Positions 8,960 through 55,488 are shown, counted from the stretch's first letter. The stretch: 55,811 nt of DNA from Candidatus Woesearchaeota archaeon (GCA_018303285.1 JAGVYL010000015.1:1-55811); one strand, 5' to 3'. The notes: generated by a model from the letters alone, not told the origin. A program made the numbers and translations.

Positions 8960-10081
8960 TCAAAATAAGTGGTGTACAAATTGAAGCAATCTCGGCTCTT
9001 TAAGCAGGGAAGAAAAGAGAATTCTTCCCGGTTTTTCTCGATTATGTTTTTCTAAAATAGGAATTATTTTCTCTTGCCCCATCAATTGCATTAGTTTATT
9101 CCACTCGTCATCGCTCAGTTTATCCATCACTTTCCGCATCTGAAGATGCAGCCACAAATCCCGGCCGATCTCTTTCTTCCAAGTTTGCGCATAACTTTCT
9201 CTTCGTTTTAACGATTCCGCCAAGCATTCAGCTGCTTTCAATCCAGAAATAATTCCCCCTAGTGTAGTAGCCTTTACTTGGGTAGCAGCATCTCCCATCA
9301 AAACTAGTTTATTCTTAATCTCTGTCGGCAGTTTAGGATTATAGACTGGAATGATTCCTCCCTGCCATGCTCTGATTCTTATTTTACTCTTTCTTTTGTC
9401 ATTCAACTCTTTAAGGAAAATATCAAAGTACTGTCGAGGATTATTTCGTACAGCTACCCCAATTCTTGCTGTTTTATTGTCTTCCGGCACCACCCAGGCA
9501 AACAAGCCCGGAGCAAAACGATTGCCGAAGTATGCTTGATAAGCAGAAGGATCAAATTCTCCTGTGGCTACTGCCTGCACTCCGAAAAAGAATTCTCTCT
9601 GGCCGAACAAGCCGAATTGCTGAGCCACTGCGCTGTTCGGCCCGTCTGCTCCCACAACAAAATCCGCAGGAGCATAAATCCTTCGTCCGGCATTGTTGTC
9701 TTTAAATTGCAGCCAGTTATCTTCGGCAGAGATAAACCGGCGGCCGAGATGCAGTTTTGCTCCGTTGTCTACTGCTTTATCCACAAAATACCCATCAAAT
9801 TTGCTGCGGTCTATCACATATTCTTTCTGCTTTATTTCAATTTTCCGGCCGGAAGGAGCAATCAGCTCAATCCGTTCCGTCGTATTCACTAAAAATGACT
9901 GCAAAGATTTTGGCGGCAATCTCAGCTCATCAAAACTGCCGGTAAGCAGGCCGGTGCATTGAATCGGTTTGCCTATCTCTTTATGTTCTTCGCACAAAGA
10001 GACTTCATGTCCTTGAGCGGCCAAAAGAGAAGCAGCATAACCTCCCACAGGGCCGGCTCCAATAACTGCAATTTTAGGCAT
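8960..10081 (-). CDS. Geranylgeranyl reductase family flavoprotein (archaeal lipid saturation type)
   Basis: MPKIAVIGAGPVGGYAASLLAAQGHEVSLCEE (FAD Rossmann) and GKPIQCTGLL. Start set at ATG 10081. Confidence 0.85.
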   Translation of the reverse strand: MPKIAVIGAGPVGGYAASLLAAQGHEVSLCEEHKEIGKPIQCTGLLTGSFDELRLPPKSLQSFLVNTTERIELIAPSGRKIEIKQKEYVIDRSKFDGYFVDKAVDNGAKLHLGRRFISAEDNWLQFKDNNAGRRIYAPADFVVGADGPNSAVAQQFGLFGQREFFFGVQAVATGEFDPSAYQAYFGNRFAPGLFAWVVPEDNKTARIGVAVRNNPRQYFDIFLKELNDKRKSKIRIRAWQGGIIPVYNPKLPTEIKNKLVLMGDAATQVKATTLGGIISGLKAAECLAESLKRRESYAQTWKKEIGRDLWLHLQMRKVMDKLSDDEWNKLMQLMGQEKIIPILEKHNREKPGRILFSSLLKEPRLLQFVHHLF

Positions 10082-10136
10082 AAAGACAAGATGGCAAGAG
10101 AGTTTAAAAGATTGATTAAACAAGAATTCTGTTTTC

Positions 10137-10580
10137 TCAAGCTGGGAACCAAACCCCTGAGGAATCTCTTATCGGAGCATAAGCCTGCAAAGAAGGATTG
10201 GCCAACTCCAGTTTCACTCGTTCATCAATCTCCAGGAAATCTCGTTTTAACAGTTCTTCCAACGTGTATCGTTTATCTTTCGCTTCCGTATCTAACTGTT
10301 GCTTAATCTGGTGTACTCTTTCTCTTTGTCCATACAGATTAATTGTAACTCGGTTCTTATATGGATACCTAACAGTCCAATCGTGCAGGTAAGCCAGCAT
10401 CACTTCTTCCTGCTTAAAGCGATAAACATCGGTGGTATCAGTGTCTTCCCTTCTCGGCCGTTTGCTTAAAGAAACAATCTCAATCTTACCGTTTTCCTTC
10501 ACGCGTCCCATATATTCTCTAAATTCTCGGGGAGAATAAAGGCCGATAGCCTTGCCTTTGTAAGCAGTTAGTTTCATCAT
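10137..10580 (-). CDS. Hypothetical protein
   Basis: 147-aa ORF, co-directional and tightly packed with neighbours. No motif recognised. Confidence 0.5.
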   Translation of the reverse strand: MMKLTAYKGKAIGLYSPREFREYMGRVKENGKIEIVSLSKRPRREDTDTTDVYRFKQEEVMLAYLHDWTVRYPYKNRVTINLYGQRERVHQIKQQLDTEAKDKRYTLEELLKRDFLEIDERVKLELANPSLQAYAPIRDSSGVWFPA

Positions 10581-10650
10581 GTCGAGAAAGTATAATTGAT
10601 TTATTTAGATTGTGAAATTTAAAAACGAGGAGGTTGCATCTTTTTCTGTA

Positions 10651-11082
10651 TCACTGAGAATAATTGCCTAAAGAATAAACGCCACTGCCCCATGATATAT
10701 CTTTAAGTTCTTTTCTTTCTGCATCAGACATCTGTTCGTAAATCCATCCTATCGGTGGGCAAGATGCGTTTTCATCATCGCCAATCAGTTCTGCGATTGT
10801 CACAAAGTTTACTACGTCGGGATTTCCTACGCTGTAAGTGGGAAACCGTTCACAATTCTCTGAAACGTAAGGTTGAATTAGTTCTAAACCTAACCGGACT
10901 CTTCTCCCCCGCCAGTCCGCACGTTCATTATCAAATTTTTCTTCTAATGGAGATTTAGTGTAAGAAACAGTCTTTTTATTATACTCTTCATTACACCCTT
11001 TTCGTGATAACGCCTGCAAAGCACTACCAGCGAAAAAACCGGCACCAATAATTATCAAAGTTTTTTTAGCCATCAATACCAT
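10651..11082 (-). CDS. Hypothetical protein with N-terminal hydrophobic/Rossmann-like segment
   Basis: MAKKTLIIIGAGFFAGSAL at the N-terminus. No further motif. Confidence 0.5.
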   Translation of the reverse strand: MVLMAKKTLIIIGAGFFAGSALQALSRKGCNEEYNKKTVSYTKSPLEEKFDNERADWRGRRVRLGLELIQPYVSENCERFPTYSVGNPDVVNFVTIAELIGDDENASCPPIGWIYEQMSDAERKELKDISWGSGVYSLGNYSQ

Positions 11083-11098
11083 TTTAGTTTATTCTAGT

Positions 11099-11335
11099 TT
11101 AAAGTTTATCACTTAATTCTTTTCGGTCTTCTCTAATCTCTTGTTTTAAAGCTTGGTTCGAAATGATTCTACCTAAAGCGTATACACCCATAAAGAAGAT
11201 GAATTGATAAGGATAAGGAACAAAAAGGGAATCCTCTTGACGAGTAGAAGCTTCTAAAATCATCCCACCGATACCTACCGCTTCTAAGATACTTCCCCAC
11301 CATATATCAAGATTTTTATGATATTGCATAACCAT
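11099..11335 (-). CDS. Small membrane protein
   Basis: 78 aa with two hydrophobic helices (WWGSILEAVGIGGMIL; FIFFMGVYALGRII). Confidence 0.45.
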   Translation of the reverse strand: MVMQYHKNLDIWWGSILEAVGIGGMILEASTRQEDSLFVPYPYQFIFFMGVYALGRIISNQALKQEIREDRKELSDKL

Positions 11336-11390
11336 TTTATATTCTTTCGGGTTTTTTTACAAGATTAAAAAATAAAAAAAAAAGAAATAC

Positions 11391-12671
11391 CTAATAGTAT
11401 TCCTTCACTTTCTCGTCTTCGTCTTTCTTGCCCATTCGGCTGAAGCCGATGATGATTCCTACAATCACCAGTAAGACAACTAAAGCAATCACTGCTACTT
11501 CAAGTCCTTTTCTTAACTTGCTGTAGTCAGCATCATTGCTGGCAGTCTTCACTACATTGGCCTTAAGACTGAACTGCTTCAGGACTTTCTCGCTGTTCTT
11601 CACAGTTACGCTGAAGATTTTTTCTCCTGCTTCAGCGGCTTCTTTGGCAGTGACATAAGCATAGGCTACTTTAGTTTCACCAGGAGCTAAGACGAAAAGA
11701 TTCTCGCTTAACTTAGCGTCAGCCCAATCTCCAGCCACTAACTCTAAAGCATAAGTCTGGGAAGCTTTTCCTTCATTGGTCAAGGTGATGGGATACATTG
11801 CCTGACTGCCGCCTGCAACCACATTCTGAGATTCCGGACCAGCAGTTAACACAAGCTTCTCGCCTGCAGTTTCCTGTTGAGCAGTTTCTCCCTCTAAAAC
11901 TTCCAAGGTGTAAGTCTTAGCAGTTACTTCTTTCATGTTGTCGTATTTGACAGTTACCTGAACCGGATACTTGCCGGCTTTGGCATCAGACGGAATCTTT
12001 AAGTAAAGTTCCTCTGTAATCTGAGTGTCATCAGCTTCTAAAGCATCGATGTAGTCAGAGGTGCTCACTCCCAATTCTGAGATAGAAGCAGTCACTTTGA
12101 CGTTTTCTTCATCTTTAACTCCGAAGTTCTCTACAACAACTTTTGCCTGTAAAGCTTTTCCTGCCTTTAATTTTAAGGAAGGGGAAAAGTCAGTGTCTTT
12201 AATTTCTACGCCGTGTCTTACTGCATCAACATAGATCTTAACGACTTTTTCCACAGCATCATGGTTCTTATCAGTGATTCTTACTCGCAAAAGATATTCA
12301 TCTTGGTCTAACTCTTTAGGTAGATTCAAGGAGAATTTCTTGTAGTAAGTTTTTCCTTCTTTCATATCAAATACATGGGTGGTGCCCACAAGAGGCTCGT
12401 AATCAGAGTATTCATAACCCTTAATGGAAGCTTCTACTTCTACGTCCTTAGCTTCACCAGTGGCCTTTAAACCAACTTCTACTTCAAGAGAGTCTCCTTC
12501 CTCGAAGTCAGTAACCTCAGTGACTAAGTCACCGTTGTCATTGAAGTCTACGTCATTGCCGTTGACTTCCATGCTCTTCACTTCTACCGGCATCGGAGAA
12601 GCAGAGGCGCTGGCTACTAAGAAAAAGCTCAGCACGACTAACGCAAATACACTCAAAATTTTATTCATCAT
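11391..12671 (-). CDS. Cell-surface protein with CARDB/Ig-like repeats and a C-terminal TM anchor
   Basis: Signal peptide MMNKILSVFALVVLSFFLVASASA and repeated beta-rich modules (...GKYPVQVTVKYD...). C-terminal anchor AVIALVVLLVIVGIIIGF followed by a charged tail. Confidence 0.75.
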   Translation of the reverse strand: MMNKILSVFALVVLSFFLVASASASPMPVEVKSMEVNGNDVDFNDNGDLVTEVTDFEEGDSLEVEVGLKATGEAKDVEVEASIKGYEYSDYEPLVGTTHVFDMKEGKTYYKKFSLNLPKELDQDEYLLRVRITDKNHDAVEKVVKIYVDAVRHGVEIKDTDFSPSLKLKAGKALQAKVVVENFGVKDEENVKVTASISELGVSTSDYIDALEADDTQITEELYLKIPSDAKAGKYPVQVTVKYDNMKEVTAKTYTLEVLEGETAQQETAGEKLVLTAGPESQNVVAGGSQAMYPITLTNEGKASQTYALELVAGDWADAKLSENLFVLAPGETKVAYAYVTAKEAAEAGEKIFSVTVKNSEKVLKQFSLKANVVKTASNDADYSKLRKGLEVAVIALVVLLVIVGIIIGFSRMGKKDEDEKVKEYY

Positions 12672-12701
12672 TTTATTTTCCCCCCATGTTTTGGTTGAGT
12701 T

Positions 12702-12722
12702 TTATCGACTTATTATCGACTT
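12702..12722. repeat. Tandem 10-nt direct repeat TTATCGACTT x2 (1-nt spacer) in the leader of the 11391-12671 gene
   Basis: Perfect copies at 12702-12711 and 12713-12722, 31-51 nt upstream of the minus-strand start at 12671. Confidence 0.8.
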
Positions 12723-12797
12723 TAAGACAGATTTTTTATTCAAATCCATCTTTCTTTATAAACCTTTCGCACGCTTTAGTATTTTAAAGTAGTTAAT

Positions 12798-15700
12798 CTA
12801 TTTTACCTCAACAGTACGATAGGCAACATTATACACTAAATCATTACTGACGGTAATCTTTACATCATATTCTCCAGCATCGATTCCTTCCGGAAGCTCC
12901 AAGGAAATCTGTTTGCTTATCTGCTTGTTCTTCTTGATATCAAACAGGCCGCTGATCTTCTTGATGCCTAATTCTGGGATAGATAGAGTGATGGTCACAT
13001 CTTTCATCTTCTGATATCCGCTGTTGACAATGTCTACTTTAGCAATCAAGGAATCGCCGGCAGAAACTTCATCTTCTTCGAAATAGATGTTGTCAAAACC
13101 CAGCTTATTGTTCTGGCCGCCCACCATTATATAATACACTTGCTGTTCAAGCATTTCTCCATCATAGGCTTCAATCACTACCTTGAACTGGCCGTTCTTT
13201 TCTACTTTCCAGGTTATCATACTGTTAGTATCCATTTCCATCCCTTCGGGTCCAGTTTTCAAACTCAAAGCCACAATCTCTCCTTCAGGATCTTTGGCTT
13301 TCACAGTGTACTGATAGGTTTTCCCCAAAGTAGCTTCTGTCGGAGCAACAGTGATAAAATACGGCTTCTTGTTGATTGTCGGTTTAGGCTCCTCTTTGGC
13401 CACCACTTTCAAGCTGACAGTTTGGCTGTCGCTTTCTTGGCCATCGCTTACAGTAAATGCTAGTTCATATTCTCCTGCATCTCCTTTAGCTGTCTGCCAA
13501 GAGAAAGCCCAAGTATGGTCTCCAACTTTTTCTACAGAGCCGACAGTATTATCTGCAGCTAGAGTCAGTTCATTTAAATCAATATCTTCTGCATCCAGAT
13601 AGAAAGACACCAAATCGCCTTCATAATAAAATTCAGGCAAGCCAGTTACTTCTTTCAGAACCGGAGCGTTATTCTCGGAAGGAATAACTGTTTCATCAGA
13701 AATTATAATGGTGAACTCCTGAGGAGCAGAGTCTTCTGTGCCGTCAAAAGCCACAAAGCTTACAGCCACTTCTCCTGCTTCTTTCGGTGTCCAGGTGATT
13801 TCTCCTGTTGCTCCATTCATGCTCATCTCTTCAGGTAAGCTAGTCTTGGCTATGAAAGTGATCAAATCTTCATCTTCGTCTACTGCAGTCAACTGATAAG
13901 TATAAGTTTCTCCTACAGTCGCTTCAGTACTAGGATTAGAGGTGATCATTGGTGCATGATTTTCAGGCAAGGGAGTTTCTTTAGTTACTTCTACATTTAA
14001 AGTTCCTTGAACTCCAGCTTTACCATCGGATAACTGGAAGATCACTGGGAAATTGCCGACAGTATTTGGCTTCCAGCTGAACAGCCACATATTTTTGCCG
14101 GCAGTAGTCAAACTCATGCCTTTAGTATTCATATTTAATATTTTTAAAGCAAGAAGCTCTTTGTCTTGGTCATAACCAGTAACAAGCTTGCTCACAGTTT
14201 CTCCTAATTTAATTTGCACCGTATCGAGCTCATTAAGTACCGGAGCATGATTTTCCGGCACAGGCTCTTCTTTCTTCTTGATGGCCAGAGTATAGATCTG
14301 TGAACCAGAATCTTTGCCATCGCTGACTTTGACTGCCACGTGATATTTTCCTTCTTTGATAGGAGTCCAGGCAATCATTCCGGTTTTACTGTTGATACCC
14401 ATTCCAGCCGGAGCAGCAGTCAAAGAGTAAGTTAATTTATCTCCTTTGTCAGCATCTAAAGCTCTAACATCATAAGTATACTTTGTGTTGACATAACCTT
14501 CTGAAACAGGTTTAGACGTGATTGTGGGTTTATGATTTCCCGGAATTGGTTTGTCAGTTACAGTAATCACAAACTTGTCAGAATCGCCTACTTTCTTGTC
14601 GGAAACATAAACATTGTATTCATAGACTCCTTCTTTGTCTGCAGTTCCTTTAAGCAGTCCAGTGGAAGCATCAATCTGCAGCCAGGTGGTGCCGGGAACT
14701 AAACTATAATCCAGCTTATCACCGTCTTCATCTGTGGCTTTGACTTGATAGCTGAAAACTTTTCCTTCTTCAAATGTTTGGTCGGGAATATTCTCTAATT
14801 CAGGAGCATGATTAACCTGAGGCTCAGCTTTATCTAAAACAGTAAGATCTACGTTCTGGCTGTTGCTGCCTTCAAAAGCATCTTTAGCAGTAAATGTTAA
14901 TTTATATTTTCCCGACTGTGATTTAGTGGGAGTCCAAGTAAAGGAAGCTTCTCCTTTATTATTAATTGTCAACTCTTTATCTACTAACGGTCCATTGGGA
15001 AAGAAGAAATTAAAGAAGCCAAAGAAACCGGTTAATTTTTTTTCTAGTTTAACATTTAGAGTTGCTTTATCTTTGTCTTGGTCATTGACTTGAAGTTTGA
15101 CTGATAAAGTTTCTTCTTCAGTCAAAATTTTTCCCGGCGTCATTTCCACCAGATTAACTGCAGGATTCTGATTGGTATCTTTAACTGTAAATTTTACTTC
15201 GTCTTGATCTTTAAGCAAACCATCACTGGCAGAGAAAATTAAATCAATCACTGCCTCTTTGCTTGGATGTTTTACTAGGTCATAACCAGGATTCCAAATG
15301 AAGACACCAGTTTCTTCATTGAAAGAAGCGCCAGACAAACCAGGTTTGTCTATAGTCTGATAGCCAGGAGTAGAGATAAAATATGAATAAAGGATCTTGT
15401 CCTTGTTTTCATCAGTAGCTTTCAATTGAAAAGTCAAACTTTCCCCTTCAACGAAAGTCATATCATTAACCGGAGATAAAATCGGAGCTTTATTATTTGA
15501 TTGAGGAAGGGCATCCTTCTCATCATTATCCTGATTGTTGCTGCATCCAGCATCTTGAAGGTCAACCTTGCCGTCTCCATCATTATCTTTTCCATCAGTG
15601 CATTGAGGCAAAGCAGCTTTCCCTTCAACTGTTAAATACAATACCGATGCATCACTGCCGTCAATGGCTTGGGCAGAGATCAGGATAGTATACTCTCCAG

Positions 15701-16022
15701 CTTTCAATTCGCTGGTCTCTACAGATACTTTATTGAAAAAGCCATCCATATTGGCGTTCATTTTCTCACCAAAGGCTAAAGTTTCTATAGCTTTTCCATC
15801 GCTGCCAAGAAGATCAGCTTGATAATCAAACTTCTTCGCACTGAGGATGACAAAAGCAAATTCCGCATTTTTTCCTTGTTCTACTGCCAGATTCTTGCTT
15901 CCAGATTCCATCCAATAGGAAGAGACGGCTAATGTACTAGCCGCAGCAAAAGTCGGCAGCAAAGAAAAGACGAACATCAATACTATGCATATTGACAATA
16001 ATTTTTGGAATCTGTTTTTCAT
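12798..16022 (-). CDS. Large secreted adhesin-like protein with about 8 cadherin-like/putative-Ig (He_PIG/CADG-type) repeats
   Basis: Signal peptide ...LLPTFAAAS and a Ca-binding-like CTDGKDNDGDGKVDLQDAGC. Recurring ~95-aa units begin N(H/K/N)(A/K)P and contain xYxYxVxAxDxDxDxLxYSL...G.I.W.P. A C-terminal CARDB-like module follows. Confidence 0.85.
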   Translation of the reverse strand: MKNRFQKLLSICIVLMFVFSLLPTFAAASTLAVSSYWMESGSKNLAVEQGKNAEFAFVILSAKKFDYQADLLGSDGKAIETLAFGEKMNANMDGFFNKVSVETSELKAGEYTILISAQAIDGSDASVLYLTVEGKAALPQCTDGKDNDGDGKVDLQDAGCSNNQDNDEKDALPQSNNKAPILSPVNDMTFVEGESLTFQLKATDENKDKILYSYFISTPGYQTIDKPGLSGASFNEETGVFIWNPGYDLVKHPSKEAVIDLIFSASDGLLKDQDEVKFTVKDTNQNPAVNLVEMTPGKILTEEETLSVKLQVNDQDKDKATLNVKLEKKLTGFFGFFNFFFPNGPLVDKELTINNKGEASFTWTPTKSQSGKYKLTFTAKDAFEGSNSQNVDLTVLDKAEPQVNHAPELENIPDQTFEEGKVFSYQVKATDEDGDKLDYSLVPGTTWLQIDASTGLLKGTADKEGVYEYNVYVSDKKVGDSDKFVITVTDKPIPGNHKPTITSKPVSEGYVNTKYTYDVRALDADKGDKLTYSLTAAPAGMGINSKTGMIAWTPIKEGKYHVAVKVSDGKDSGSQIYTLAIKKKEEPVPENHAPVLNELDTVQIKLGETVSKLVTGYDQDKELLALKILNMNTKGMSLTTAGKNMWLFSWKPNTVGNFPVIFQLSDGKAGVQGTLNVEVTKETPLPENHAPMITSNPSTEATVGETYTYQLTAVDEDEDLITFIAKTSLPEEMSMNGATGEITWTPKEAGEVAVSFVAFDGTEDSAPQEFTIIISDETVIPSENNAPVLKEVTGLPEFYYEGDLVSFYLDAEDIDLNELTLAADNTVGSVEKVGDHTWAFSWQTAKGDAGEYELAFTVSDGQESDSQTVSLKVVAKEEPKPTINKKPYFITVAPTEATLGKTYQYTVKAKDPEGEIVALSLKTGPEGMEMDTNSMITWKVEKNGQFKVVIEAYDGEMLEQQVYYIMVGGQNNKLGFDNIYFEEDEVSAGDSLIAKVDIVNSGYQKMKDVTITLSIPELGIKKISGLFDIKKNKQISKQISLELPEGIDAGEYDVKITVSNDLVYNVAYRTVEVK

Positions 16023-16095
16023 TTTGTTTTTACCTCACTGTTTTTTACTGTGAGGTTCCGAAACCTCAGTTTCGATACCTCACAACTAAAAAAAA
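16023..16095 (-). promoter_or_regulatory. Intercistronic leader with three SD-like GUGAGGU/CUGAGGU copies and one anti-SD-like ACCUCAC (alternative hairpins)
   Basis: Minus-strand RNA: UUGUGAGGUAUCGAAACUGAGGUUUCGGAACCUCACAGUAAAAAACAGUGAGGUAAAAACAAAAUG. ACCUCAC can pair either with the start-proximal GUGAGGU or with the upstream CUGAGGU(U) (UCGG loop). Confidence 0.35.
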
Positions 16096-16911
16096 TTAAA
16101 ATTTATATCTAATTTCAAATATGCCTTGAGCAGATTTACTGCGAGTGCTGTATCCTCCTTCAACACCGAGGCGTAAGTTTCTCAAGGTTCTTACATTAAG
16201 ACCGCCATGAAGATTAGCACCATACCAAGTTTCGGTATTTGTGGTAGAATCTCCAATAGTTTTCTTGCCGTCCAATTGCTGGCCGTCTTTGGTTAATCTC
16301 ATAGATCCAGTATAATCTTTATGAGTAGTTCTTTGACCAATCAAGGCATCCACTCCTGCGCCAAGATCAAATCTTCCTCTGCTGTAGGTTACCTCAGGAC
16401 CAACTGCAACAAAATCTTTTTTTTCAACAGTAGTCTTAGTTACATCCGCAGTTGTTTTCTGTACATCGCCTGGCAAAGTGGCTGTTTGTATCCCGCTTTT
16501 GTCAGTGTCAGTATCGACATCTGCACTCTGGAAGATTGCAGCAGCTCTTAAACCTGGAGTCCATCGGCCAATTTGATAGCCAGCAGAAACTCCTAATCGT
16601 CCTTGGTTTTCCGCATCGTTAGAAAAAGCATAGGCCGCAAAAGGAGCAAAGACGAATTCTCCGCCTTGCTTGACTATTGTGTTTTGGCCGCAGCCGACTT
16701 TCAATAAACGGGCTCTCTCTTGCTCAAACAACTCTTTGCTTTGGTCATAAAGTCTAATTTTTTCGTCTAACTGCTCAGTAAGATTTCCAATAGGTTTTTC
16801 TGTCGGAGCAGTAAGTCCTTGTGTCAACGCTTGGGCAGTAGTAGCTTCTTCTAATGCCGGAGCGGTAGTCGGTTCTTCTTCTTGTCTAAACCAGCATAAG
16901 CTTTCTTGCAC
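16096..16911 (-). CDS. C-terminal beta-barrel segment of a frameshifted surface protein (OMP_b-brl-like, ends ...GIFEIRYKF)
   Basis: Alternating amphipathic strands (GVSAGYQIGRW, FVAVGPEVTYSRG, WYGANLHGGLNVR, LRLGVEGGYS) and a terminal beta-signal with Phe. This ORF has no signal peptide of its own and overlaps 16851-17357 in another frame. Confidence 0.6.
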   Translation of the reverse strand: MQESLCWFRQEEEPTTAPALEEATTAQALTQGLTAPTEKPIGNLTEQLDEKIRLYDQSKELFEQERARLLKVGCGQNTIVKQGGEFVFAPFAAYAFSNDAENQGRLGVSAGYQIGRWTPGLRAAAIFQSADVDTDTDKSGIQTATLPGDVQKTTADVTKTTVEKKDFVAVGPEVTYSRGRFDLGAGVDALIGQRTTHKDYTGSMRLTKDGQQLDGKKTIGDSTTNTETWYGANLHGGLNVRTLRNLRLGVEGGYSTRSKSAQGIFEIRYKF

Positions 16912-17357
16912 GGCTCACTATCTTTCAATCCGAGCATAAAGTTTTCGTAATCGGCCAAAGTTTCAGTATGAGTTTGTTCTAACTCATCAATTCTTTTCTG
17001 TGCTGATTTTAATGCTGCTTGAGACTCTCCAACCGCGCGTTCCAAGTCACTGATATTTGCTATCGGACCAGCGCAAACTTGCTGGGAAGGACATGCTTCC
17101 GCATCTCTCTTAGTGTAATTTCTTCGGTCTTTATTTTCTACACGATTAGTCAAGCCAAGTTTATCCGCTACAGACGGAGCTACACAAGCGTACTTGTCTC
17201 CATAAAAACTTGCACAAGCTTTTCCGGTTCTGGACGGAGATTTTGCAGGAGAGGTAACTCTTTCTCTACCTTCTAAAACAACCTTTTCTTTCGCATAAGC
17301 GTTTCCACAGTAAACTGCACCTACCAGGGCGGCCAAGACCAAACTGTTTTTAACCAT
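16851..17357 (-). CDS. N-terminal segment (signal peptide plus Cys-rich and coiled-coil region) of the same frameshifted surface protein
   Basis: MVKNSLVLAALVGAVYCGNAYA|KEK signal peptide. The frame closes at 16851, shortly after the (AAG)3 run at 16871-16886 where the other frame continues. Confidence 0.6.
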   Translation of the reverse strand: MVKNSLVLAALVGAVYCGNAYAKEKVVLEGRERVTSPAKSPSRTGKACASFYGDKYACVAPSVADKLGLTNRVENKDRRNYTKRDAEACPSQQVCAGPIANISDLERAVGESQAALKSAQKRIDELEQTHTETLADYENFMLGLKDSEPCKKAYAGLDKKKNRLPLRH

Positions 17358-17379
17358 TTTAATAATCCTCCATGTATTT

Positions 17380-18006
17380 TTATTCTAGTTTAACTATAAT
17401 ATAATCATCTCCGGGGTTGACGCGGCAGGCATCTTTGTTCTTCTCGATAAATAATCTTCTTGTTTCTGCATCATCATACTCCGGCTGATACGAGACCATA
17501 AGAGAATATAAATTGTCTAAAGCTTCAGGACATGTTTTTCCCTTCACTTTTAATTCTCCTAATAAAAATCTCTTCAATGAGGACACATAGTTTAACAGTA
17601 CTTTTGGAGAATTATCCGGATCTTTCTTTAGATCACGATAAAAACTAGTGATTTGAGTAGTTTGAGTCGGCTTAGCTTTCTCAAAAGTTAAGTTAGTCAT
17701 ACACTCGCTATACTTTTCTTGCAAATCTTTTGCCGCATCTAACTGCGGTTGATATTCCTGTCTAACCCGTGCTTCTACTTCTTTTTCATCAACTAGGGAA
17801 GCTTGTACGGGCACTGCCACTTGTTTGTATGCCGGTTGTTCTTCTGTTGATCGGCGCCCACAATTATAATCTGCCCCACAGATAGCAATGATTCCTCCAC
17901 AATAAAGAATCTGTGCTAACCATGAAGATTTTATTTTTTTTTCTAAAGAACTAAAATTTGCATCGGCATTGCCAGAAGCTCCAGTTGATTTATCATTGTC
18001 TACCAT
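17380..18006 (-). CDS. Membrane-anchored protein, unknown function
   Basis: One TM helix (WLAQILYCGGIIAICGA) followed by a charged, partly helical ectodomain. Same operon direction as the surface cluster. Confidence 0.6.
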   Translation of the reverse strand: MVDNDKSTGASGNADANFSSLEKKIKSSWLAQILYCGGIIAICGADYNCGRRSTEEQPAYKQVAVPVQASLVDEKEVEARVRQEYQPQLDAAKDLQEKYSECMTNLTFEKAKPTQTTQITSFYRDLKKDPDNSPKVLLNYVSSLKRFLLGELKVKGKTCPEALDNLYSLMVSYQPEYDDAETRRLFIEKNKDACRVNPGDDYIIVKLE

Positions 18007-18105
18007 TTAGTTTCCACCCCGTATAAATAATTATTAATTTAGCTGATATAACTATTTTCTACTTTAAAGTAGGTGTTCCTATATAAAGTTTTCGGAATAA
18101 AATCT

Positions 18106-20004
18106 TTAATCGGATGGGCAGGTATCAACATGATGTTCAGAACTGTCGTTACACAAAAAATAGAAACACGGTTGTTTATATCCTTGTTCTAAATGAATAC
18201 TCATCGAACAGTTATCAATAGGTACATCAAAAAGTTTGGAAAACTGTTGTTGCATTTTTTGCTGTTTTTCTTGATAATCTGATTGGCTAACATATAAACT
18301 ACAAATATTGTCGATGAAATTAGATGATGTATCAGAACTTATGCCGTCCCAATCATTTAAGCGGGCGGTTAATTCTAATTCTTCTTTTAATGGAGCAATA
18401 GACTTTAATATTATTTCTTTTACTTTGTTTTTATCATTTCGCTCTAACGCGTTGCTCAGTTGTAAACATGAATCATTTTTTTCATAAAAAGCAACATTCC
18501 CCGCTAACTGTTTTCCTTCTTTGTACAAGGAGTTATTGGCTTCAATGCATACTTTATTACCTGTACCTAATACGTCCACTAATTGAGTCAACTCTTTGTT
18601 CTGTCTCGCCTCAGAGAAATATAATAAGCCTCCCGCAACAAGAGATACTCCTAACGCCCCCAATGCAGCAGCCAGTTTCCATCTACCGGTTCCCGAAGGA
18701 GCGGCGGATTCTTTTGTTTTTTCCAGCACAGTTTGCTTTTTGGTTGCAAGCCAATCGTTTACTTTTTTTTGTTCACGAGAAATTAATTCGGCATATTGTG
18801 CCTTTAAAGCGCGAGTTTCGCTCTCTAATGCAATACGATGAACTTTAGGAGGAATGTAACCTTCGTATTGTGTTCTTAAAGTGTTAATCTCTTCAGCAGA
18901 ATCGCTCGCCTGCCTTTTTACTGCGTCTAATACAGCGGTATGTACTTCTCCAGAGACGTGATTTTTATACGTTTGCATTAAAGTACGTTTTTCTTGAAAT
19001 AACTCCTCTTTGATTTGTTCCGAGTTATTCAATAAATTTTGTAACGAATCAATTTCTTTTTCTTTCTCAGCTAACTCTGCTCTTAATGCATCAGAAACAT
19101 CTCCTTCTTCTGAGGCAGGAGGTCTTTCTGGCGCCCGTTCATCTTCGTCTCTCCTCTCTCGCACATTTTTACGTTCTTTCTCAAGTTCTTTGAGAGTATA
19201 CCTCTCCACTCGTTCAAAAACCTCTTCTAAGTTTTTTTCAACGTAAAAAGTATTGTATTCGGTGGCTATTCTTCTGGCAATAGCATTTGCTTCAGTCGGT
19301 TTTTCTCTCGCAAGATGAGAAGAAACCAGCTCGGCCATTTCTAAATAGTGAGGTACTATCTGTTCTAAAAAATCTAATCTACGCATCAGTTCTCGAGATT
19401 CATCTTGATCTTCATTGAAACTATTCTGTAAAAATGCGTACTGAAAAAAAGCTGCGTTTAAATTTTCCCAAATATATTGATGGTCTAAGATTTCTTGATG
19501 CAGTCCCAACTGGTCTAACCTAGAATAAACTCGTGCTCGGACAGCTTCTTCATGCGTTTCTAAAACAATTTTATATGCAGAGAAATAGTCTCCTGCTTCG
19601 AGATTTTTTCTTAAAACAGTCATTATCTCTTTTTGGTTTAGAACTGGAAGAGAAAACATCGCCGGCAAGTGCAGAGCCATATTGGGAAATCTTTCTTTAG
19701 AAAAATCATTCTCTGCTACATAAGCCATAAACTCTACGCATTTTCTTGAACTTTCTTCATCAGGTATATAACTCTTAAACATAGCCTCGCATTGAGCTCT
19801 CATATCCAGAGGATGTCCCCAGCTTTCCATTAAATCTTCTAATGTGCAATATTTGCGAGTGCTCTGTACAGGTATAATCTGCGTCTTGGATTCCATGGCC
19901 GGAACAGAAACTGAGGGAAGTTGAGGAGCCGCTTGCATACTTCCAGTATTAGGAATTTCTGCTTCTCCAAAAACAATTTTATTTTTTTCCGTTGGATCAT
20001 CCAT
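18106..20004 (-). CDS. 632-aa coiled-coil membrane protein, unknown function
   Basis: Long heptad-like charged segments (ELEKERKNVRERRDEDERAPE..., LRAELAEKEKEIDSLQNLLN), a single TM helix (WKLAAALGALGVSLVAGGLLYF) and a Cys-containing C-terminal domain. Confidence 0.7.
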   Translation of the reverse strand: MDDPTEKNKIVFGEAEIPNTGSMQAAPQLPSVSVPAMESKTQIIPVQSTRKYCTLEDLMESWGHPLDMRAQCEAMFKSYIPDEESSRKCVEFMAYVAENDFSKERFPNMALHLPAMFSLPVLNQKEIMTVLRKNLEAGDYFSAYKIVLETHEEAVRARVYSRLDQLGLHQEILDHQYIWENLNAAFFQYAFLQNSFNEDQDESRELMRRLDFLEQIVPHYLEMAELVSSHLAREKPTEANAIARRIATEYNTFYVEKNLEEVFERVERYTLKELEKERKNVRERRDEDERAPERPPASEEGDVSDALRAELAEKEKEIDSLQNLLNNSEQIKEELFQEKRTLMQTYKNHVSGEVHTAVLDAVKRQASDSAEEINTLRTQYEGYIPPKVHRIALESETRALKAQYAELISREQKKVNDWLATKKQTVLEKTKESAAPSGTGRWKLAAALGALGVSLVAGGLLYFSEARQNKELTQLVDVLGTGNKVCIEANNSLYKEGKQLAGNVAFYEKNDSCLQLSNALERNDKNKVKEIILKSIAPLKEELELTARLNDWDGISSDTSSNFIDNICSLYVSQSDYQEKQQKMQQQFSKLFDVPIDNCSMSIHLEQGYKQPCFYFLCNDSSEHHVDTCPSD

Positions 20005-21206: not shown

Positions 21207-21226
21207 CTTTTTGAATATTCTAAAAC

Positions 21227-21336
21227 TGGGGACGTGGGGAATCGAACCCCATTTCGTCGGTGCCGCCTAAGAATCTTGCCCGGAAGCTTAATCCTTTAAA
21301 CTGGAGCCGACTGTAATACCAGTATACTACGTCCCC
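21227..21336 (-). tRNA. tRNA-Trp(CCA) with a ~39-nt intron after position 37
   Basis: Reverse complement: GGGGACG-TA-GTAT..TTAC-A-GTCGG-CU-CCA-G | intron TTTAAAGGATTAAGCTTCCGGGCAAGATTCTTAGGCGGC | A-CCGAC-GAAA-TGGGG-TTCGATT-CCCCA-CGTCCCC-A. All stems pair canonically. Confidence 0.85.
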
Positions 21337-21362
21337 ACCAAAGAATTAAGTTCTTAAGGTTC

Positions 21363-21372: not shown

Positions 21373-22089
21373 TTATTGGTTGTTTGGACTTAAATTGTGT
21401 TTATTTAGCGGCTCTACAATCTCTGCCCTGCTCAAATATTCCCTTATTTCTTGGGCGATTGTTGGTTGTTCTATATCCATTAACGCAGCATATTCTTGAA
21501 ATGCATGTCTTTCAGTGGATAAGATTCTTTCTTGCCAATCCTGTTCCGGAAAAAACTTCTTTCGATATTTGTTTCCAAAAAAGAACCGGGCACTAAGAAT
21601 CAATTTTAAATCTACCTGAGAAGCGATTTCACTAGATGGAGTAACACTCATCATCTGAAAATGATTTTCGCTAGTATCTTTCCCTTTAGGAACAATTTGC
21701 CGAAACGGAACTCGTTGAAAACCTTCTTCGGCTAATTGTAAATAGTCTCCGGGATACATCTCGTCTTGATCTATCTTAAGATAGATATCTAATGTTTTTT
21801 TTAATCGCTCAACGGTGTTAGTTTCAGTTTGAATAACGGACCATAATTCGCTACAAACGGCTTGTCGTTCGTCTTTGCTATTCAAGATATAATGTTCACA
21901 GAACATTGGAACTGGAACGGGGTGTTCCTTAGTAATCCATTGCTGGAATCCTTCCTCGAAATATAAATGATGTAATCCATTGGCATAAATATCTTTTTTG
22001 GCTTTTTTGTTTAGTATTCCTTGAATTCCAAAACCTATCAGTGTATCAGATTCATATGCTGCAAGAACTAACCTAGTGAGATTATCCAT
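21373..22089 (-). CDS. Hypothetical protein
   Basis: 238-aa ORF. No motif recognised. Confidence 0.55.
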   Translation of the reverse strand: MDNLTRLVLAAYESDTLIGFGIQGILNKKAKKDIYANGLHHLYFEEGFQQWITKEHPVPVPMFCEHYILNSKDERQAVCSELWSVIQTETNTVERLKKTLDIYLKIDQDEMYPGDYLQLAEEGFQRVPFRQIVPKGKDTSENHFQMMSVTPSSEIASQVDLKLILSARFFFGNKYRKKFFPEQDWQERILSTERHAFQEYAALMDIEQPTIAQEIREYLSRAEIVEPLNKHNLSPNNQ

Positions 22090-48082: not shown

Positions 48083-49030
48083 TTATGTTTCGGTTTGTTT
48101 TTCTTTGTGCCCGTAACTTCTAATTTGATCAATAATCAAGTCTAGCATTTCAGCAATATAGTTTTTGTTATCGTTCTTATCAGCTTTCTCTATAGCTTGA
48201 TAGTATTGTTCTCTTTTTTCAAATGGGATAAAAAACATGGGATAACTCTTCTTCATTAAAACAAAATTCATTACTGCTCTGGCAGTTCTACCATTTCCAT
48301 CTTCAAAAGGATGAATCCAAGCAATACGAGCATGGATTATGGTAGCTAACTCAAAAGGATGAAGCTTATTTTTATTGGTATTGTACCATTTGAACAGGTT
48401 GAGTAAGTGCCTTTTAACTTCCTCGTGTTTCGGCGGAATATGATTAGAACCATGAATTTGCACATCAAAGAACCGAACTCGTCCGCCATAAACTACGCCC
48501 GTGTTTTTGGTTAAGATACCATTTAATTTTTCTAAAAAATGCTTGTTTAAATCTCCTTTGTAAGATTTAAGATATTCCAAGCATTCTCTTCCGTTAATAG
48601 CTTCGTTGTAATCTTCTGCTCTCACGCCAGAAGGAATAACTTTATCTTTAAGAATTAAAGCAGTTTGTCTGAGGGTGAGTCTATTTCCCTCGATAGCATT
48701 GGTATGATAGGTAAAGCGGATAACAAAGTCTTCGTTTAATTTTTCTCTAACACTTTTAGGGATTTGCTTGAGCCACTCTTTGTAGCTTTCTTTCAAATCC
48801 TGCAAAGTCTCTGCATCGTGCTCGGAAAGATAAGCATATTCTGATCTTTTGATGAATTGTTGCGATTCTGCTTCTATTTTCTTAGTGGATTGAGCTAGTT
48901 CTTCTTTAGACGGTTGTTTGTCTCCGAAGTAAATCCGCACTTTTTTCCATTTATTCAAGCCTAAGCGGATATTTTTAGTGAGATAGAAGTATTCTTTCTT
49001 ATTACGTTTGATAATTTCTACGTAGGCCAT
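48083..49030 (-). CDS. Fic-domain protein (AMPylase type) with an N-terminal inhibitory motif
   Basis: Canonical HPFEDGNGRTARAVMNF (HxFx[DE]GNGRxxR) and an upstream TNAIEGN matching the (S/T)xxxE(G/N) auto-inhibition helix. Confidence 0.9.
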   Translation of the reverse strand: MAYVEIIKRNKKEYFYLTKNIRLGLNKWKKVRIYFGDKQPSKEELAQSTKKIEAESQQFIKRSEYAYLSEHDAETLQDLKESYKEWLKQIPKSVREKLNEDFVIRFTYHTNAIEGNRLTLRQTALILKDKVIPSGVRAEDYNEAINGRECLEYLKSYKGDLNKHFLEKLNGILTKNTGVVYGGRVRFFDVQIHGSNHIPPKHEEVKRHLLNLFKWYNTNKNKLHPFELATIIHARIAWIHPFEDGNGRTARAVMNFVLMKKSYPMFFIPFEKREQYYQAIEKADKNDNKNYIAEMLDLIIDQIRSYGHKEKQTET

Positions 49031-49967: not shown

Positions 49968-52900
49968 TCATCTCTTTAATTTTATTTTGTCTTTTTCTTC
50001 ATCTATTAATTTATTCTTTATTAAATGATTAATTGCTTCCTCAACTTTATCTCTTATCTTATTTCCTGTTCGGTTATTATTATAAATTCCTCTTGCTATA
50101 TCTGAGGTTATAGCTTTTTTTGTTGCGCTGAAAGAATTCTTTAAAATATCAATTATTGCCCCAGCTAATTCTTCTTTAGGGATTAAAATAAATGACCTGT
50201 CACTTTCTTCTGAAAGTTTTACTTCGGAAAATATATTTATAGGTTCAAGAGAAACAGTGTTTTGGTAAATATTGATTCCCTTATCTTTCTTTAATTCCTT
50301 TAATATTTCTTCAAATAAATGTTCTATTCTTCGTCCTAACTTTTGAATACCCATTGAAGACAATACTCTTTTGTATAATAATTCTTTTTCAATCGGACTC
50401 TCTATTTCTAGAACTTGCATTATTTTTCTTTTAATGACAGAAACTGCCGAATAATTGTTAAGGCTTCCGTAACTGTCAAATTCTAAATCCATATCTGATT
50501 TTGAAAGCTCTGCTATTTTGTATTTTTTATATTTATCCTTGAGTTCAATTTCTTTAAAGTCTTCTTTTTCATCAATTTTTGATAAACAATTATTCTGTTT
50601 GGGTTCTGAAATACCTTTTGATTTCAAGATATTTTTAACTTTCTCCCTTACCTTTTCGATTTCGTATTCCTTGTTATTTAACCAATCATCAGACCAAATT
50701 CTGATTATATTCCAACCGAGATTCTCTAATACAACTTGCCTGATTTTGTCCCTATCTCTTGCAAATCTTGAAGAATGGTATTGTGAGCCATCACATTCAA
50801 CACCCAAAATATATTCTCCGGGTTTTTTTGGATGTTTTATGGCTAAATCTACCCTGTACCCAGAACAACCAATCTGACAGCTTACATCAAATCCTTCTTT
50901 TATTAATTCCTCATAAACAGCTTCTTCAAAAGAAGAATCAAATTGTAGCCCCTCGGTTTTCTGTAAGTACTTAGTAAAATCTTTATTTTTTGCAAAATCT
51001 AAATAATATTTTAAGTACCTCACGCCTTCTGCATTAATTTTATCTTCGTCTAACTCGTCAGGAAGCATCGACGAAATAACAACTGTTTTAAATCTTGAAC
51101 GAGTTATTGATACATTAAGTCTTTTGTAGCCTCCTTCTTTATTCAATGGACCAAAATTATAACTAAATTTACCTGAGGAGTCTTTGCCATAACCTACACT
51201 TAGAATAATAATGTCTCTTTCGTCACCTTGCACGGTTTCAAGATTTTTAACAAATACTTCCTCGTTATTAACATCGATTGACTCTTCTATAGGTATTCCT
51301 GCTATTTGAAATTCCTCTCTAATTGCATTTTCTTGAGCCATACTAAAAGCAATAATTCCAAATGATTTTTTTGGAAACTTCTTTTTTAAATCCCTATAAA
51401 TTTTAACAATCTCCCTCGCTTCAATCCTATTTTTCCTGGATTTTCCTCTGTCATAGACCCCTTGTTTAATATATACAAAATCCAGTCCGCTGTTATCATT
51501 TTCCTTAGGATTTGGGAAGGTTATTAAACGGTTTTCATAAAAGAACCTATTGGAAAAAGATATAAGTGTTTCATTATTACTTCTATAATGCCAATCCAGT
51601 GATTTGGTTCTGAATTTAGTTATTGATTCACTTAAGAAACTCTCTAAATCTTCAATTTCTTCTTCACTTTCATCATCTTGGCTTAAGAAGAATGATGTAG
51701 GTGGGAGTTGTTGTGTATCTCCCATTATTATAGCCTGTTTTGCTCTTATAAGACAAGGAACAGCGTCTTCGGGCATAATTTGAGAGGCTTCATCAAATAT
51801 GACTATATCAAAATTTATATTTTTTGGATTAATATATTGACTAACCGTCAGAGGACTCATCATAAAACAAGGTTTCAAAGCAAAGGCTAAATCTGGTATT
51901 TGTTCTAATAAATCCCTAATAGGTTTTAATCTTCTTTTCTTTTCATTTTCTCGTTTGAGAATGGAAACCTCATTAGAACCCATACTTGAGTAATTGTCTT
52001 TTGGTTGTCTATCTTCAACAGACTCCATAACTTTATACCTAAAAATATCTCTAACTTTTATATCATCATCTCTGAATTTTTCAACAAGACTTTTTGGAGA
52101 AAACTTATTTGATTTTTTGAGTATTTCATCTAAAATCTGGAGATAGTAGGACTTAAGAAAAACCTTGCTGAATTCACTTCTGACAGCATTATCGAAATAT
52201 TTTTTTATAAACTCCTTTACTTCTTCATCTAGCTTTATGAATTCTTCTTTAAATGCAAGAACCTCTTTAAGATTCTTAAATTGGTTATTCAGTTTCTCCA
52301 AAACAGTTAGAACATCTTGAATGTTCTCTAAACTGGTTAATTGTTTAACCTCAAAGAACCCTTCTGTTTCATTTAAAGAATAATAAAAATCTCTAAATAG
52401 TCCTTTCTGATTACAATTAGATAGTGACTGAATTATAGCATAATTTTTACTTTTTGAAATTTTATTTGATATTTCAAAGAGAGGTATCAAGTCTTTACAA
52501 TATTTATCTAATCTGGAGATATTACTTAGATTGCTATAATCACCGATAATCTCTGATTTTTTCTTGTTCTTTGAGACAATTTCATTAAGTTTTCTATTTA
52601 TTTTTTCATATTTGGCTTTCTCATCAAAAAGAGATATCCATTCATTATATCCTATTTTTATTTTTGCATATTTATCCAAATTAGCCTTATTGGTTTTATA
52701 TTCCTGATTAAAAAGTCTAACGAAAAACGAGGTTTCTCTGAATATCTTTTCAACTTGATGTGTGTTTAAATCGTCAATAAAAGAATCTTTTACTCTCTTT
52801 GTCATATCTTCCCGCATCTCTTTTAGCTCCAAAAGAACAGATAGTAACTCTTTTATCAGAGAATTATATTCTTCAAAATCTTTTGAAAGCAAATATGAGA

Positions 52901-54485: not shown

Positions 54486-54486
54486 C

Positions 54487-55488
54487 TTAAATCAAATCAT
54501 CCAATCCTTTTTTATCTATTAGTTGTACTCCATTTTTACTTGCTAATTCAAATGCAGATTTTGTAAATGTTCCAGTAGTTATGACCATTGCCTTGTCGCA
54601 GTCATAAAATTTCATAGAAGCGACGACTTCTTGAACCGCTTTATTTCCGACGCTACCCACATATTTTTTTATTTGAACAGCAATAAGAACACCTTTTTTA
54701 TCTTCTAAGATTATGTCTGCTCCTTGATCGCCTGTTGCTTTTGTAATTTTAAGATTATATCCTTTTTTCTTAAAGCAAGAAGCAATAAATTTCTCGAATT
54801 CCAGTCCAGACATGGCTTGAATTTCTTTTTTTGAGGAGCTTTTTTCAGTTCGTAAAAGCTTTTCTTCAAAATTATCTAATTCTCTTTTTTGTTCTATTTC
54901 ATTTATTTTTTTTATTATCTCATCAACAGTAAGTTTTATCCCAGTTTTTTTAATAAGTTCATCAATAATATGCTCTATATACTCTTTTGCAGTTTTTTCG
55001 TAATCAAATATCAATCTATCCAAAATCAAAGATGCTAGTTCATCTAAATTATATTCTTTTTCTTTGACATAATTAACTAATTCATCAACTTTTGTGACAA
55101 ACTCCAAATTTTGAACAAGTAAATAAAACTCTTCTTCAGAGAATAATAGTCCCATCTTATTTTCAAGTAACCTTTTAAAAATAGGCAAATTATCAACAGA
55201 GGATTCATCATTATATCTTTTAGCATATTTTAAGAATAAATCGATAATTTCATCATTAATAGAATTATTTATGGATTTGAATTTTTCATATCTTTCTCTT
55301 ATTGAGATAGGATTATCAGCATTTTGCCATATCCATTTCTCAAAGTTATTATAAATACCTTTTTCTTGTTTATAGCCTTCGATTTCTGTTCTTAATTTTT
55401 TAAGGGCCTTTAATTCTTCCGTAGAAATCTCCTTTCTTCCTAATTCTCGCATTCTTCGAGCCCATTTATTTTCTTTTTTGGTATCCAT
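54487..55488 (-). CDS. Fusion of an unknown ~220-aa helical domain with an Mrr-type (PD-(D/E)xK) restriction-endonuclease core
   Basis: C-terminus GLEFEKFIASCFKKKGYNLKITKATGDQGADIILEDKKGVLIAVQIKKY...AVQEVVASMKFYDCDKAMVITTGTFT (Mrr_cat pattern D...QxK). The stop is 1 nt from the helicase start. Confidence 0.8.
   Translation of the reverse strand: MDTKKENKWARRMRELGRKEISTEELKALKKLRTEIEGYKQEKGIYNNFEKWIWQNADNPISIRERYEKFKSINNSINDEIIDLFLKYAKRYNDESSVDNLPIFKRLLENKMGLLFSEEEFYLLVQNLEFVTKVDELVNYVKEKEYNLDELASLILDRLIFDYEKTAKEYIEHIIDELIKKTGIKLTVDEIIKKINEIEQKRELDNFEEKLLRTEKSSSKKEIQAMSGLEFEKFIASCFKKKGYNLKITKATGDQGADIILEDKKGVLIAVQIKKYVGSVGNKAVQEVVASMKFYDCDKAMVITTGTFTKSAFELASKNGVQLIDKKGLDDLI

Follow-up and report, generated by a model that had tools for sequence, protein, structure and literature searches.

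A candidate cell-envelope and adhesion cassette of Woesearchaeota with a predicted outer-membrane-like β-barrel protein

Several described surface systems bear comparison with a run of minus-strand genes at positions 10137–20004 of a 55,811-nucleotide contig from a Candidatus Woesearchaeota archaeon (GCA_018303285.1, JAGVYL010000015.1:1-55811). The whole of this stretch was analysed and is called the window. The genes encode an anchored protein with immunoglobulin (Ig)-like domains (p426), a long Ig-repeat protein (p1074), a β-rich protein (the barrel protein) and two membrane proteins (p208 and p632). The SlaA/SlaB system of the Sulfolobales joins a small transmembrane (TM)-anchored subunit to an adjacent, larger, unanchored outer subunit, an arrangement that resembles p426 and p1074; tandem Ig-like domains likewise build the surface layers (S-layers) of Haloferax (csg) and Nitrosopumilus (SLP). 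Intimin/invasin inverse autotransporters and two-partner secretion systems pair a β-barrel product with a long Ig-repeat surface protein, as this locus does. The barrel protein itself is comparable to the TM domain of OmpA, OmpX, Ail, NspA and the N-domain of OprF in its Sec-type signal peptide and its up-and-down β-meander (~190 residues, predicted), with short strands that have a hydrophobic face, two long protruding hairpins and an aromatic last residue (…RYKF). It also shares the succession of signal peptide, coiled coil, linker and C-terminal barrel with FapF, the amyloid secretion channel of Pseudomonas.

Few archaea that have yet to be cultured are as widespread as the Woesearchaeota. 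A first-pass annotation of the window had described the region as a cluster of cell-surface genes that plausibly forms a host-attachment or cell-cell contact apparatus. The cell-surface character is supported by our in silico analysis, the products being membrane or secreted proteins. As for the apparatus, the conserved surface core that was found need not be a single co-regulated unit. We consider, at a probability of about 0.55, that the region is a core cell-envelope/adhesion cassette of a Woesearchaeota archaeon, as distinct from a proven single machine. The analysis names an order-wide candidate coat protein, a variable adhesin that probably docks on the coat and two conserved partner proteins.

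Gene order, the anchored Ig-domain protein and the Ig-repeat protein

Relatives of p426 were identified by a pattern scan in at least 176 species of GTDB, from which 80 loci (L012–L091) were taken; 1446 open reading frames (ORFs) were called in all loci. The recurrent order is a Trp/Tyr-type permease, one or two single-pass TM proteins (150–860 residues), a 350–760-residue protein without TM helices, an Ig-repeat protein with a signal peptide (400–1600 residues), the 426-family gene and geranylgeranyl reductase (GGR). The upstream order of four genes (p208-type TM protein, protein at the barrel position, Ig-repeat protein and 426-family protein) is fixed across ~50 species. In L009 the permease, RtcA (RNA 3′-phosphate cyclase) and GGR flanks are replaced and the TM, barrel-like, Ig and 426-family genes are still adjacent; in L011 the barrel and TM genes are swapped, both still next to the Ig and 426-family genes. 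Contigs of the same genus (aIF5B 97–99% identical) are collinear over the whole region, which by itself is uninformative since their housekeeping flanks are collinear as well. Conservation of the gene neighbourhood, which the first-pass annotation had proposed as a check, was found for the four-gene core in dozens of species, but the permease and GGR flanks are equally syntenic. The synteny block from permease to GGR spans the whole order. Constant elements are also a secreted, β-rich protein that is Cys-rich and has a coiled coil, and its TM neighbour, whose ectodomain is of the p208 type.

In p426 a signal peptide precedes three Ig-like β-sandwiches; a C-terminal TM helix comes next, and the chain ends in a conserved YY. 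In the AlphaFold2 (AF2) model (mean predicted local distance difference test score, pLDDT, of 87.6) a signal helix is followed by the three sandwiches and by a helix at residues 380–413. Pfam matches were obtained to CARDB (4e-5), NPCBM_assoc and FixG_C, so that the earlier description of a CARDB-like protein with a C-terminal anchor holds. The closest curated family is NCBIfam NF033506 ('putative S-layer protein'; 5.9e-25, 88.0 bits, residues 39–408). A specific S-layer fold was sought and could not be assigned, as Foldseek listed generic Ig arrays only (50 matches listed among 562 significant). The family comprises 64 clusters of constant length with a conserved TM segment and YY tail, and its identity to genus relatives (97–98%) is as high as that of aIF5B (97–99%). 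The family, of ~420-residue proteins, extends across the order, and p426 has three Ig-like domains that its C-terminal helix anchors in the membrane. Because p426 is so widespread and so well conserved, and matches NF033506 below threshold, we infer that it is the ubiquitous coat (S-layer-type) protein of the lineage. A lake study reported that S-layer genes, not necessarily those of the p426 family, are among the most expressed genes of Woesearchaeota (PMC11606122). The first-pass annotation had foreseen being overturned by an S-layer component with unrelated neighbours; p426, being coat-like, comes near that case, but its neighbours are not unrelated.

The p1074 protein has a signal peptide, an N-terminal β-domain, an acidic Cys/Asp motif (residues 140–163), eight He_PIG/Big_9/cadherin-like units (residues 177–964) and a CARDB/NPCBM_assoc-like C-terminal domain (residues ~965–1074). 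The repeats and the calcium-binding-like sequence seen in the first pass were both recovered: DNDGDGKVD lies at residue 146, and eight units start with N[HKNQ][AKN]P at a spacing of 92–120 residues. Scores for tandem Ig-like repeats are above the Pfam gathering threshold (He_PIG, 1.5e-56, 189 bits against a cut-off of 24, in five stretches; Big_9, 1.1e-36, 126 bits; Cadherin_5, 1.8e-11, 44 bits). Identity to genus relatives is 77–92%. The acidic Cys/Asp motif is a sub-threshold match to NCBIfam NF033662 (24 bits against a 41-bit cut-off); it occurs once in p1074 and in several copies in the 705-residue orthologue of L010 (L010 7718–9835).

The last domain of p1074 also matches NF033506 (6.5e-8) and is homologous to domains of the 426-residue family. 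A profile iterated from the last 230 residues of one Ig protein gathered all 426-family proteins and, from 75 loci (the window and its close relatives included), the Ig protein encoded by the gene next upstream; the variable Ig protein therefore ends in a p426-homologous domain. In 73 further loci a p1074-type protein of 400–1600 residues is encoded immediately before the 426-family gene. The product at this position is always secreted and unanchored, with Ig repeats and a length that differs greatly between loci.

The β-rich protein

The architecture of the barrel protein was taken from the intact homologue P0009. Its signal peptide leads into a region containing six invariant cysteines; helices are predicted at residues 102–241, and a highly conserved C-terminal domain of ~190 residues closes with the invariant F441 (…[RK][YW][KN]F). 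The N-terminus (MVKNSLVLAALVGAVYCGNAYA/K, the stroke marking the putative cleavage point) has a charged n-region, followed by a hydrophobic core and a site resembling AxA; these features are kept in nine homologues and point to a Sec signal. Identity of the barrel domain to genus relatives is 56–87%.

The best AF2 model (m69e06f6f7318) has these helices and folds residues 254–441 into an antiparallel β-meander with pLDDT values of 70–90. All 50 matches listed by Foldseek against the PDB are membrane β-barrels, nearly all of them bacterial outer-membrane proteins (OMPs). The eight-stranded OmpA domain, Ail, OmpX, NspA and the N-domain of OprF lead (probability 1.00, E ~1e-5), and FapF is among the top matches (E = 2.6e-5, with TM-scores of only 0.17–0.25). 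With moderate confidence, the AlphaFold and Foldseek results place the β-rich domain only among bacterial eight-stranded outer-membrane barrels. Composition agrees with such a fold. In eight segments of 10–13 residues one face is hydrophobic (A, V, L, F, Y and I; mean Kyte–Doolittle value +1.8) and the opposite face is Gly-rich and charged or polar (Gly at 12 of 48 residues), with two long Thr/Asp-rich hairpins between the segments; the alternation in the central strands is kept across 35 non-redundant homologues. Proteins at the barrel gene position end in F or W in 25 of 54 cases, compared with 90 of 1134 other ORFs (8%; odds ratio 10, p = 6e-13), as expected of a C-terminal aromatic β-signal; one subfamily ends in GYCPxxE instead. 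An invariant DxDxDTD motif (P0009 residues 301–307; window ~16500–16520) occupies one face of a predicted strand extension and may be a metal-binding site.

No Pfam or NCBIfam model matched the barrel protein, the orthologue from L010 reaching only E = 0.064 against PF13505. Nothing was found in the PDB, either by a profile search or by sequence searches with three syntenic barrel candidates, and a pattern scan of GTDB species genomes with barrel profile A2 was also empty. HMMER returned five matches from 1.84 billion proteins: three members of the family itself, a distant relative of the same architecture (P0083) and a spurious repeat protein (P0082). None of the window ORFs scanned with Pfam matched an Omp85-type family. 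Because no sequence search joins the family to bacterial OMPs, the likeness is structural and compositional only, and a likeness drawn from predicted structure does not establish membership of an OMP family. A full-text literature search, of incomplete coverage, gave no account of β-barrel or OMP-like proteins in Woesearchaeota or DPANN archaea.

When the barrel profile was iterated to convergence over the 1446 ORFs, 43 were gathered. Of those that could be placed, 36 of 39 are the second gene upstream of the 426-family gene and the other three are the third or fourth, on the same strand; no member was placed at any other site. Iterated hidden Markov models joined the L010-type proteins at the barrel position to the family. 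Alignment of the barrel profile with the syntenic L009, L010 and L011 proteins and with other subfamilies in hhalign was not significant. The barrels of a second subfamily (L043-type) could not be linked to the window barrel by hhalign; the N-terminal regions of this subfamily are homologous to the Cys-rich and coiled-coil part of the window protein, by which it is judged to be the same protein. The barrel family is confined to Woesearchaeota-type genomes.

All of the minus-strand ORFs listed in the first-pass annotation are present at their coordinates, but what it took for a single intact barrel gene is two ORFs of 168 and 271 residues that overlap out of frame. In all relatives these are replaced by one intact gene of 436–467 residues (440–467 in the homologues P0009–P0017). 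A groundwater contig (L092) carries the gene intact (441 residues); by comparison the window lacks 64 nucleotides, and the gene is therefore frameshifted. Nucleotide identity to L092 is 99.7% on one side of the deletion and 97.0% on the other. The deletion could have arisen in the assembly, or it could be genuine and mark a pseudogene or a variant of the strain; given the frameshift, the barrel arm is probably inactive in this genome. Elsewhere, L012 has two copies of the barrel gene in one cassette (1943–3319 and 4228–5562), and in L064 (2426–3494) the gene is split into two ORFs like that of the window; disruption of this gene may recur.

Membrane proteins, neighbouring genes and limits of the cassette

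In 11 further species the p208 ectodomain is encoded right before the barrel gene, either alone or as the C-terminus of single-pass TM proteins of 250–860 residues. The TM segment of p208 is weak and was flagged in the L001 and L003 orthologues. Identity to genus relatives is 62–65%, and L005–L008 have no separate gene. The idea that p208 duplicates the C-terminus of p632 found no statistical support (BLASTP E = 0.82; a C..L.NLY-like motif is common to both by eye only).

In p632 no signal peptide was detected. A conserved N-terminal domain of ~280 residues, presumably cytoplasmic, is followed by a charged helical middle and, by predicted topology, a Cys-containing C-terminal ectodomain of ~168 residues; the one TM helix of the first-pass annotation corresponds to a single hydrophobic segment at residues 443–464. 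The family has only eight clusters, all from Nanoarchaeia, and the N-terminal domain occurs in the genus and in L033 only. Identity to genus relatives is 31–64%, compared with 97–99% for aIF5B, which marks a fast-evolving protein. No match to p632 was obtained in Pfam, NCBIfam or PADLOC, and a p632 profile found nothing among PDB sequences. The notion of p632 as the coiled-coil base of a contact apparatus sits badly with a fast-evolving protein limited to the genus and one other species; on its distribution it is a lineage-specific addition to the cassette. More generally, the non-repeat proteins match no recognized family, as had been noted in the first pass: searches of Pfam, NCBIfam, PADLOC and PDB sequences gave nothing significant.

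The three small proteins that had been counted as cluster members probably do not belong to the cassette. Two (p78 and p143) are found in the genus only, p143 being absent in L006, and the 147-residue ORF is unique to the window, with no tblastn match in any relative, the closest included. The boundaries at 10137 and 20004 could not be upheld either, since the minus-strand run extends past both ends into housekeeping genes: upstream lie the permease, an intron-containing tRNA-Trp and a 238-residue ORF (p238), and downstream GGR, p119 and a methyltransferase. The limits of the cluster are arbitrary. Coordinates of the features are given in Table 1.

Table 1 Features of the region, in window coordinates
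Feature	Position	Strand	Description
p632, single-pass membrane protein	18106–20004	−	TM segment at residues 443–464; predicted topology
p208, small membrane protein	17380–18006	−	Weak N-terminal TM segment; ~165-residue ectodomain with cysteines
Barrel-protein gene, disrupted	16096–17357	−	Two out-of-frame ORFs; deletion junction at ~16875
Barrel gene, 5′ part (168 residues)	16851–17357	−	Signal peptide, Cys-rich region, coiled coil
Barrel gene, 3′ part (271 residues)	16096–16911	−	Linker and ~190-residue β-domain ending RYKF
T8 tract	16088–16095	−	Possible archaeal terminator, directly past the barrel-gene stop codon, with an inverted repeat after it; putative function
p1074, secreted Ig-repeat protein	12798–16022	−	1074 residues, no membrane anchor; Pfam, unit count
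p426, anchored S-layer-type surface protein	11391–12671	−	426 residues; AF2, Pfam, NCBIfam
T10 and T6 tracts	11367–11383	−	Possible strong terminator, just past the p426 stop codon; putative function
p78	11099–11335	−	Two hydrophobic segments; genus only; system membership doubtful
p143	10651–11082	−	N-terminal hydrophobic segment; genus only, absent in L006; system membership doubtful
147-residue ORF	10137–10580	−	Unique to the window

The window carries archaeal genes (aIF5B, Trm1, RtcA and GGR), and homologues of the cluster proteins bear the names of Candidatus Nanoarchaeia, Woesearchaeota or Nanoarchaeota metagenome-assembled genomes. By these names the source organism is a Woesearchaeota/Nanoarchaeia (DPANN) archaeon, in agreement with the DPANN-type host proposed in the first pass. 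Bacterial contamination or a chimeric assembly was ruled out because independent assemblies keep the same gene order between archaeal housekeeping genes. A defence system was ruled out for the cluster, the PADLOC scan having returned nothing credible.

Some further features of the window were recorded. The tRNA-Trp(CCA) gene (21226–21337, minus strand) was detected only by ARAGORN with the intron search, and was missed by the default tRNA scan and by Rfam at gathering thresholds. The p238 ORF (21373–22089, minus strand) lies between RtcA and this tRNA gene; it matched nothing by tblastn among the genus relatives and nothing in Pfam or PADLOC, and may be an insertion beside the tRNA gene. At 49968–55488 (minus strand) a 1505-residue DUF4011/AAA_11/AAA_12 helicase with an MTES_1575 nuclease domain and DUF3320 adjoins a 333-residue Mrr_cat restriction-type protein, and the local GC fraction drops to ~0.30; this stretch is probably a defence or mobile island. 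Two ORFs with Fic/DOC domains are located at 6008–6655 (plus strand) and 48083–49030 (minus strand).

Interpretation and comparison with described systems

In a core envelope and adhesion cassette, p426 would form a membrane-anchored coat layer of the S-layer type, on which p1074 would dock through its p426-like C-terminal domain while showing its eight He_PIG/cadherin-like modules outward as a variable adhesive surface. The barrel protein would be exported by Sec, and its eight-stranded amphipathic barrel would enter a bilayer from outside. As the archaeon has no known outer membrane, the most plausible target would be the membrane of a partner cell. In an eight-stranded barrel both ends of the chain lie on the side of entry, which would leave the coiled-coil stalk and the Cys-rich head in the intercellular space; the p208 and p632 ectodomains could hold them there.

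A number of observations weigh against this interpretation. Docking and tethering are wholly conjectural. Genes of the flanks are kept as faithfully as those of the core: in 65 of 70 loci the gene after the 426-family gene is GGR (window site 8960–10123), and in 37 of 48 the Trp/Tyr-type permease lies three to five genes upstream, with RtcA beyond. Since these flanks are just as syntenic, gene order alone defines no machine. In the intergenic sequences, which were inspected by direct reading, oligo-T tracts follow both the barrel gene (T8) and p426 (T10 and T6) and argue against one operon; with equally syntenic flanks and intervening T-tracts, co-function of the cassette is no more than putative. 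For p426, the NF033506 score is below the curated cut-off of 110 bits, and the Foldseek matches of its model are generic Ig, macroglobulin and hydin arrays. The barrel alignment given to AF2 held nine sequences and one of five models reached a mean pLDDT of 65; against OmpA or Ail the TM-score does not exceed 0.53, and root-mean-square deviations are 9–11 Å. Homology of the barrel protein to bacterial OMP families was not detected with Pfam, NCBIfam, the PDB profile search or HMMER, and profiles left the proteins at the barrel position of L009, L011, L034, L055 and L061 unlinked. Archaea are not known to have an outer membrane or a β-barrel assembly machinery (BAM)/Omp85 insertase.

Two other accounts of the locus differ in how much they ask of it. 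A dedicated, one-unit host-attachment machine, with p632 and p208 as a coiled-coil base, the barrel as conduit or anchor and p1074 as adhesin, was the model of the first-pass annotation. We regard it as improbable, even though the four-gene order is kept beyond the genus, all products are membrane or secreted proteins and DPANN archaea are generally episymbionts (PMC11329633). The narrow distribution and rapid evolution of p632 do not suit a base component; p426, the most conserved and widespread member, resembles a general coat and not a contact-site specialist; possible terminators lie within the cluster; and a barrel domain of ~190 residues is too small to conduct a protein of 1074 residues. 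With the barrel gene broken in this genome, such a machine cannot be essential here. At the other extreme, p426 (perhaps with p1074) might be an ordinary S-layer gene and the remaining genes might be present merely through deep regional synteny. Order conservation that reaches genes without evident link (GGR, the permease and RtcA) and the oligo-T tracts would be explained in this way. The four genes nevertheless stay adjacent where their flanks have been replaced (L009), the barrel and TM genes stay beside the Ig and 426-family genes where the two have been swapped (L011), each of the four products is either exported or a membrane protein, and the domain common to p1074 and p426 argues for physical interaction; this account, too, we hold to be improbable.

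The nature of the barrel domain is a separate matter. It could be a soluble or lattice-embedded β-rich domain, part of the coat or ligand-binding, with an OMP likeness that is convergent or a modelling artefact. The lack of sequence similarity to any OMP family, the low TM-scores and shallow alignment and the want of a known archaeal outer membrane or insertase all accord with this, and long polar, Thr/Asp-rich strand extensions with an invariant DxDxDTD would suit an exposed metal-binding sheet. It is harder to reconcile with a Foldseek list of 50 matches that are all membrane β-barrels, the eight-stranded ones at probability 1.00, with short strands that are hydrophobic on one face and Gly-rich and charged on the other, as in narrow TM barrels, or with the strong enrichment of a terminal aromatic residue at this gene position across species. 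A non-membrane domain is on balance a minority possibility, rather unlikely but to be taken seriously. The stronger proposal, that Woesearchaeota encode true TM barrels of the OmpA/OmpX type which, without BAM, serve as a coiled-coil-tethered anchor in a partner membrane and have a fixed S-layer/adhesin partner, is unlikely as a whole. Such a barrel would be the first in Archaea, against the rule that TM β-barrels occur only in the outer membranes of bacteria and organelles; its insertion without BAM would then call for an explanation, and it would suggest a mechanism by which an episymbiont is anchored to its host.

Set against the described systems, the core envelope and adhesion cassette departs from each in some respect. 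The two-partner and inverse-autotransporter systems use a translocator of 12–16 strands with POTRA or a periplasmic domain, whereas the domain here has ~190 residues, too few for a translocation pore, and no POTRA, LysM, ShlB-type or TpsA-type match was found; unlike in intimin/invasin and two-partner secretion, the barrel and the Ig-repeat protein are here products of separate genes. Neither SlaA/SlaB nor Haloferax csg or Nitrosopumilus SLP gave a sequence match, and all were absent among the 50 Foldseek matches listed of 562. Unlike in SlaA/SlaB-type systems, the outer subunit varies from 400 to 1600 residues between species, and the likeness is one of architecture only. NF033506 (PACE-CTERM-PROT), the best curated match of p426, has a model of 627 positions compared with 426 residues. 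FapF is a 12-stranded gated barrel, whereas the barrel here has about eight strands and no amyloid operon context. In contrast to the OmpA class, the barrel protein is archaeal, from a host without a known outer membrane or BAM, has no detectable sequence homology to that class, and carries its barrel C-terminally, with a Cys-rich head and a ~140-residue coiled coil in front of it. The p1074 and p426 proteins are new members of already known kinds, an Ig-repeat adhesin and an anchored Ig-domain coat protein, and the unusual element of the cassette appears to be a conserved, position-specific family of OMP-like predicted β-barrels in monoderm archaea.

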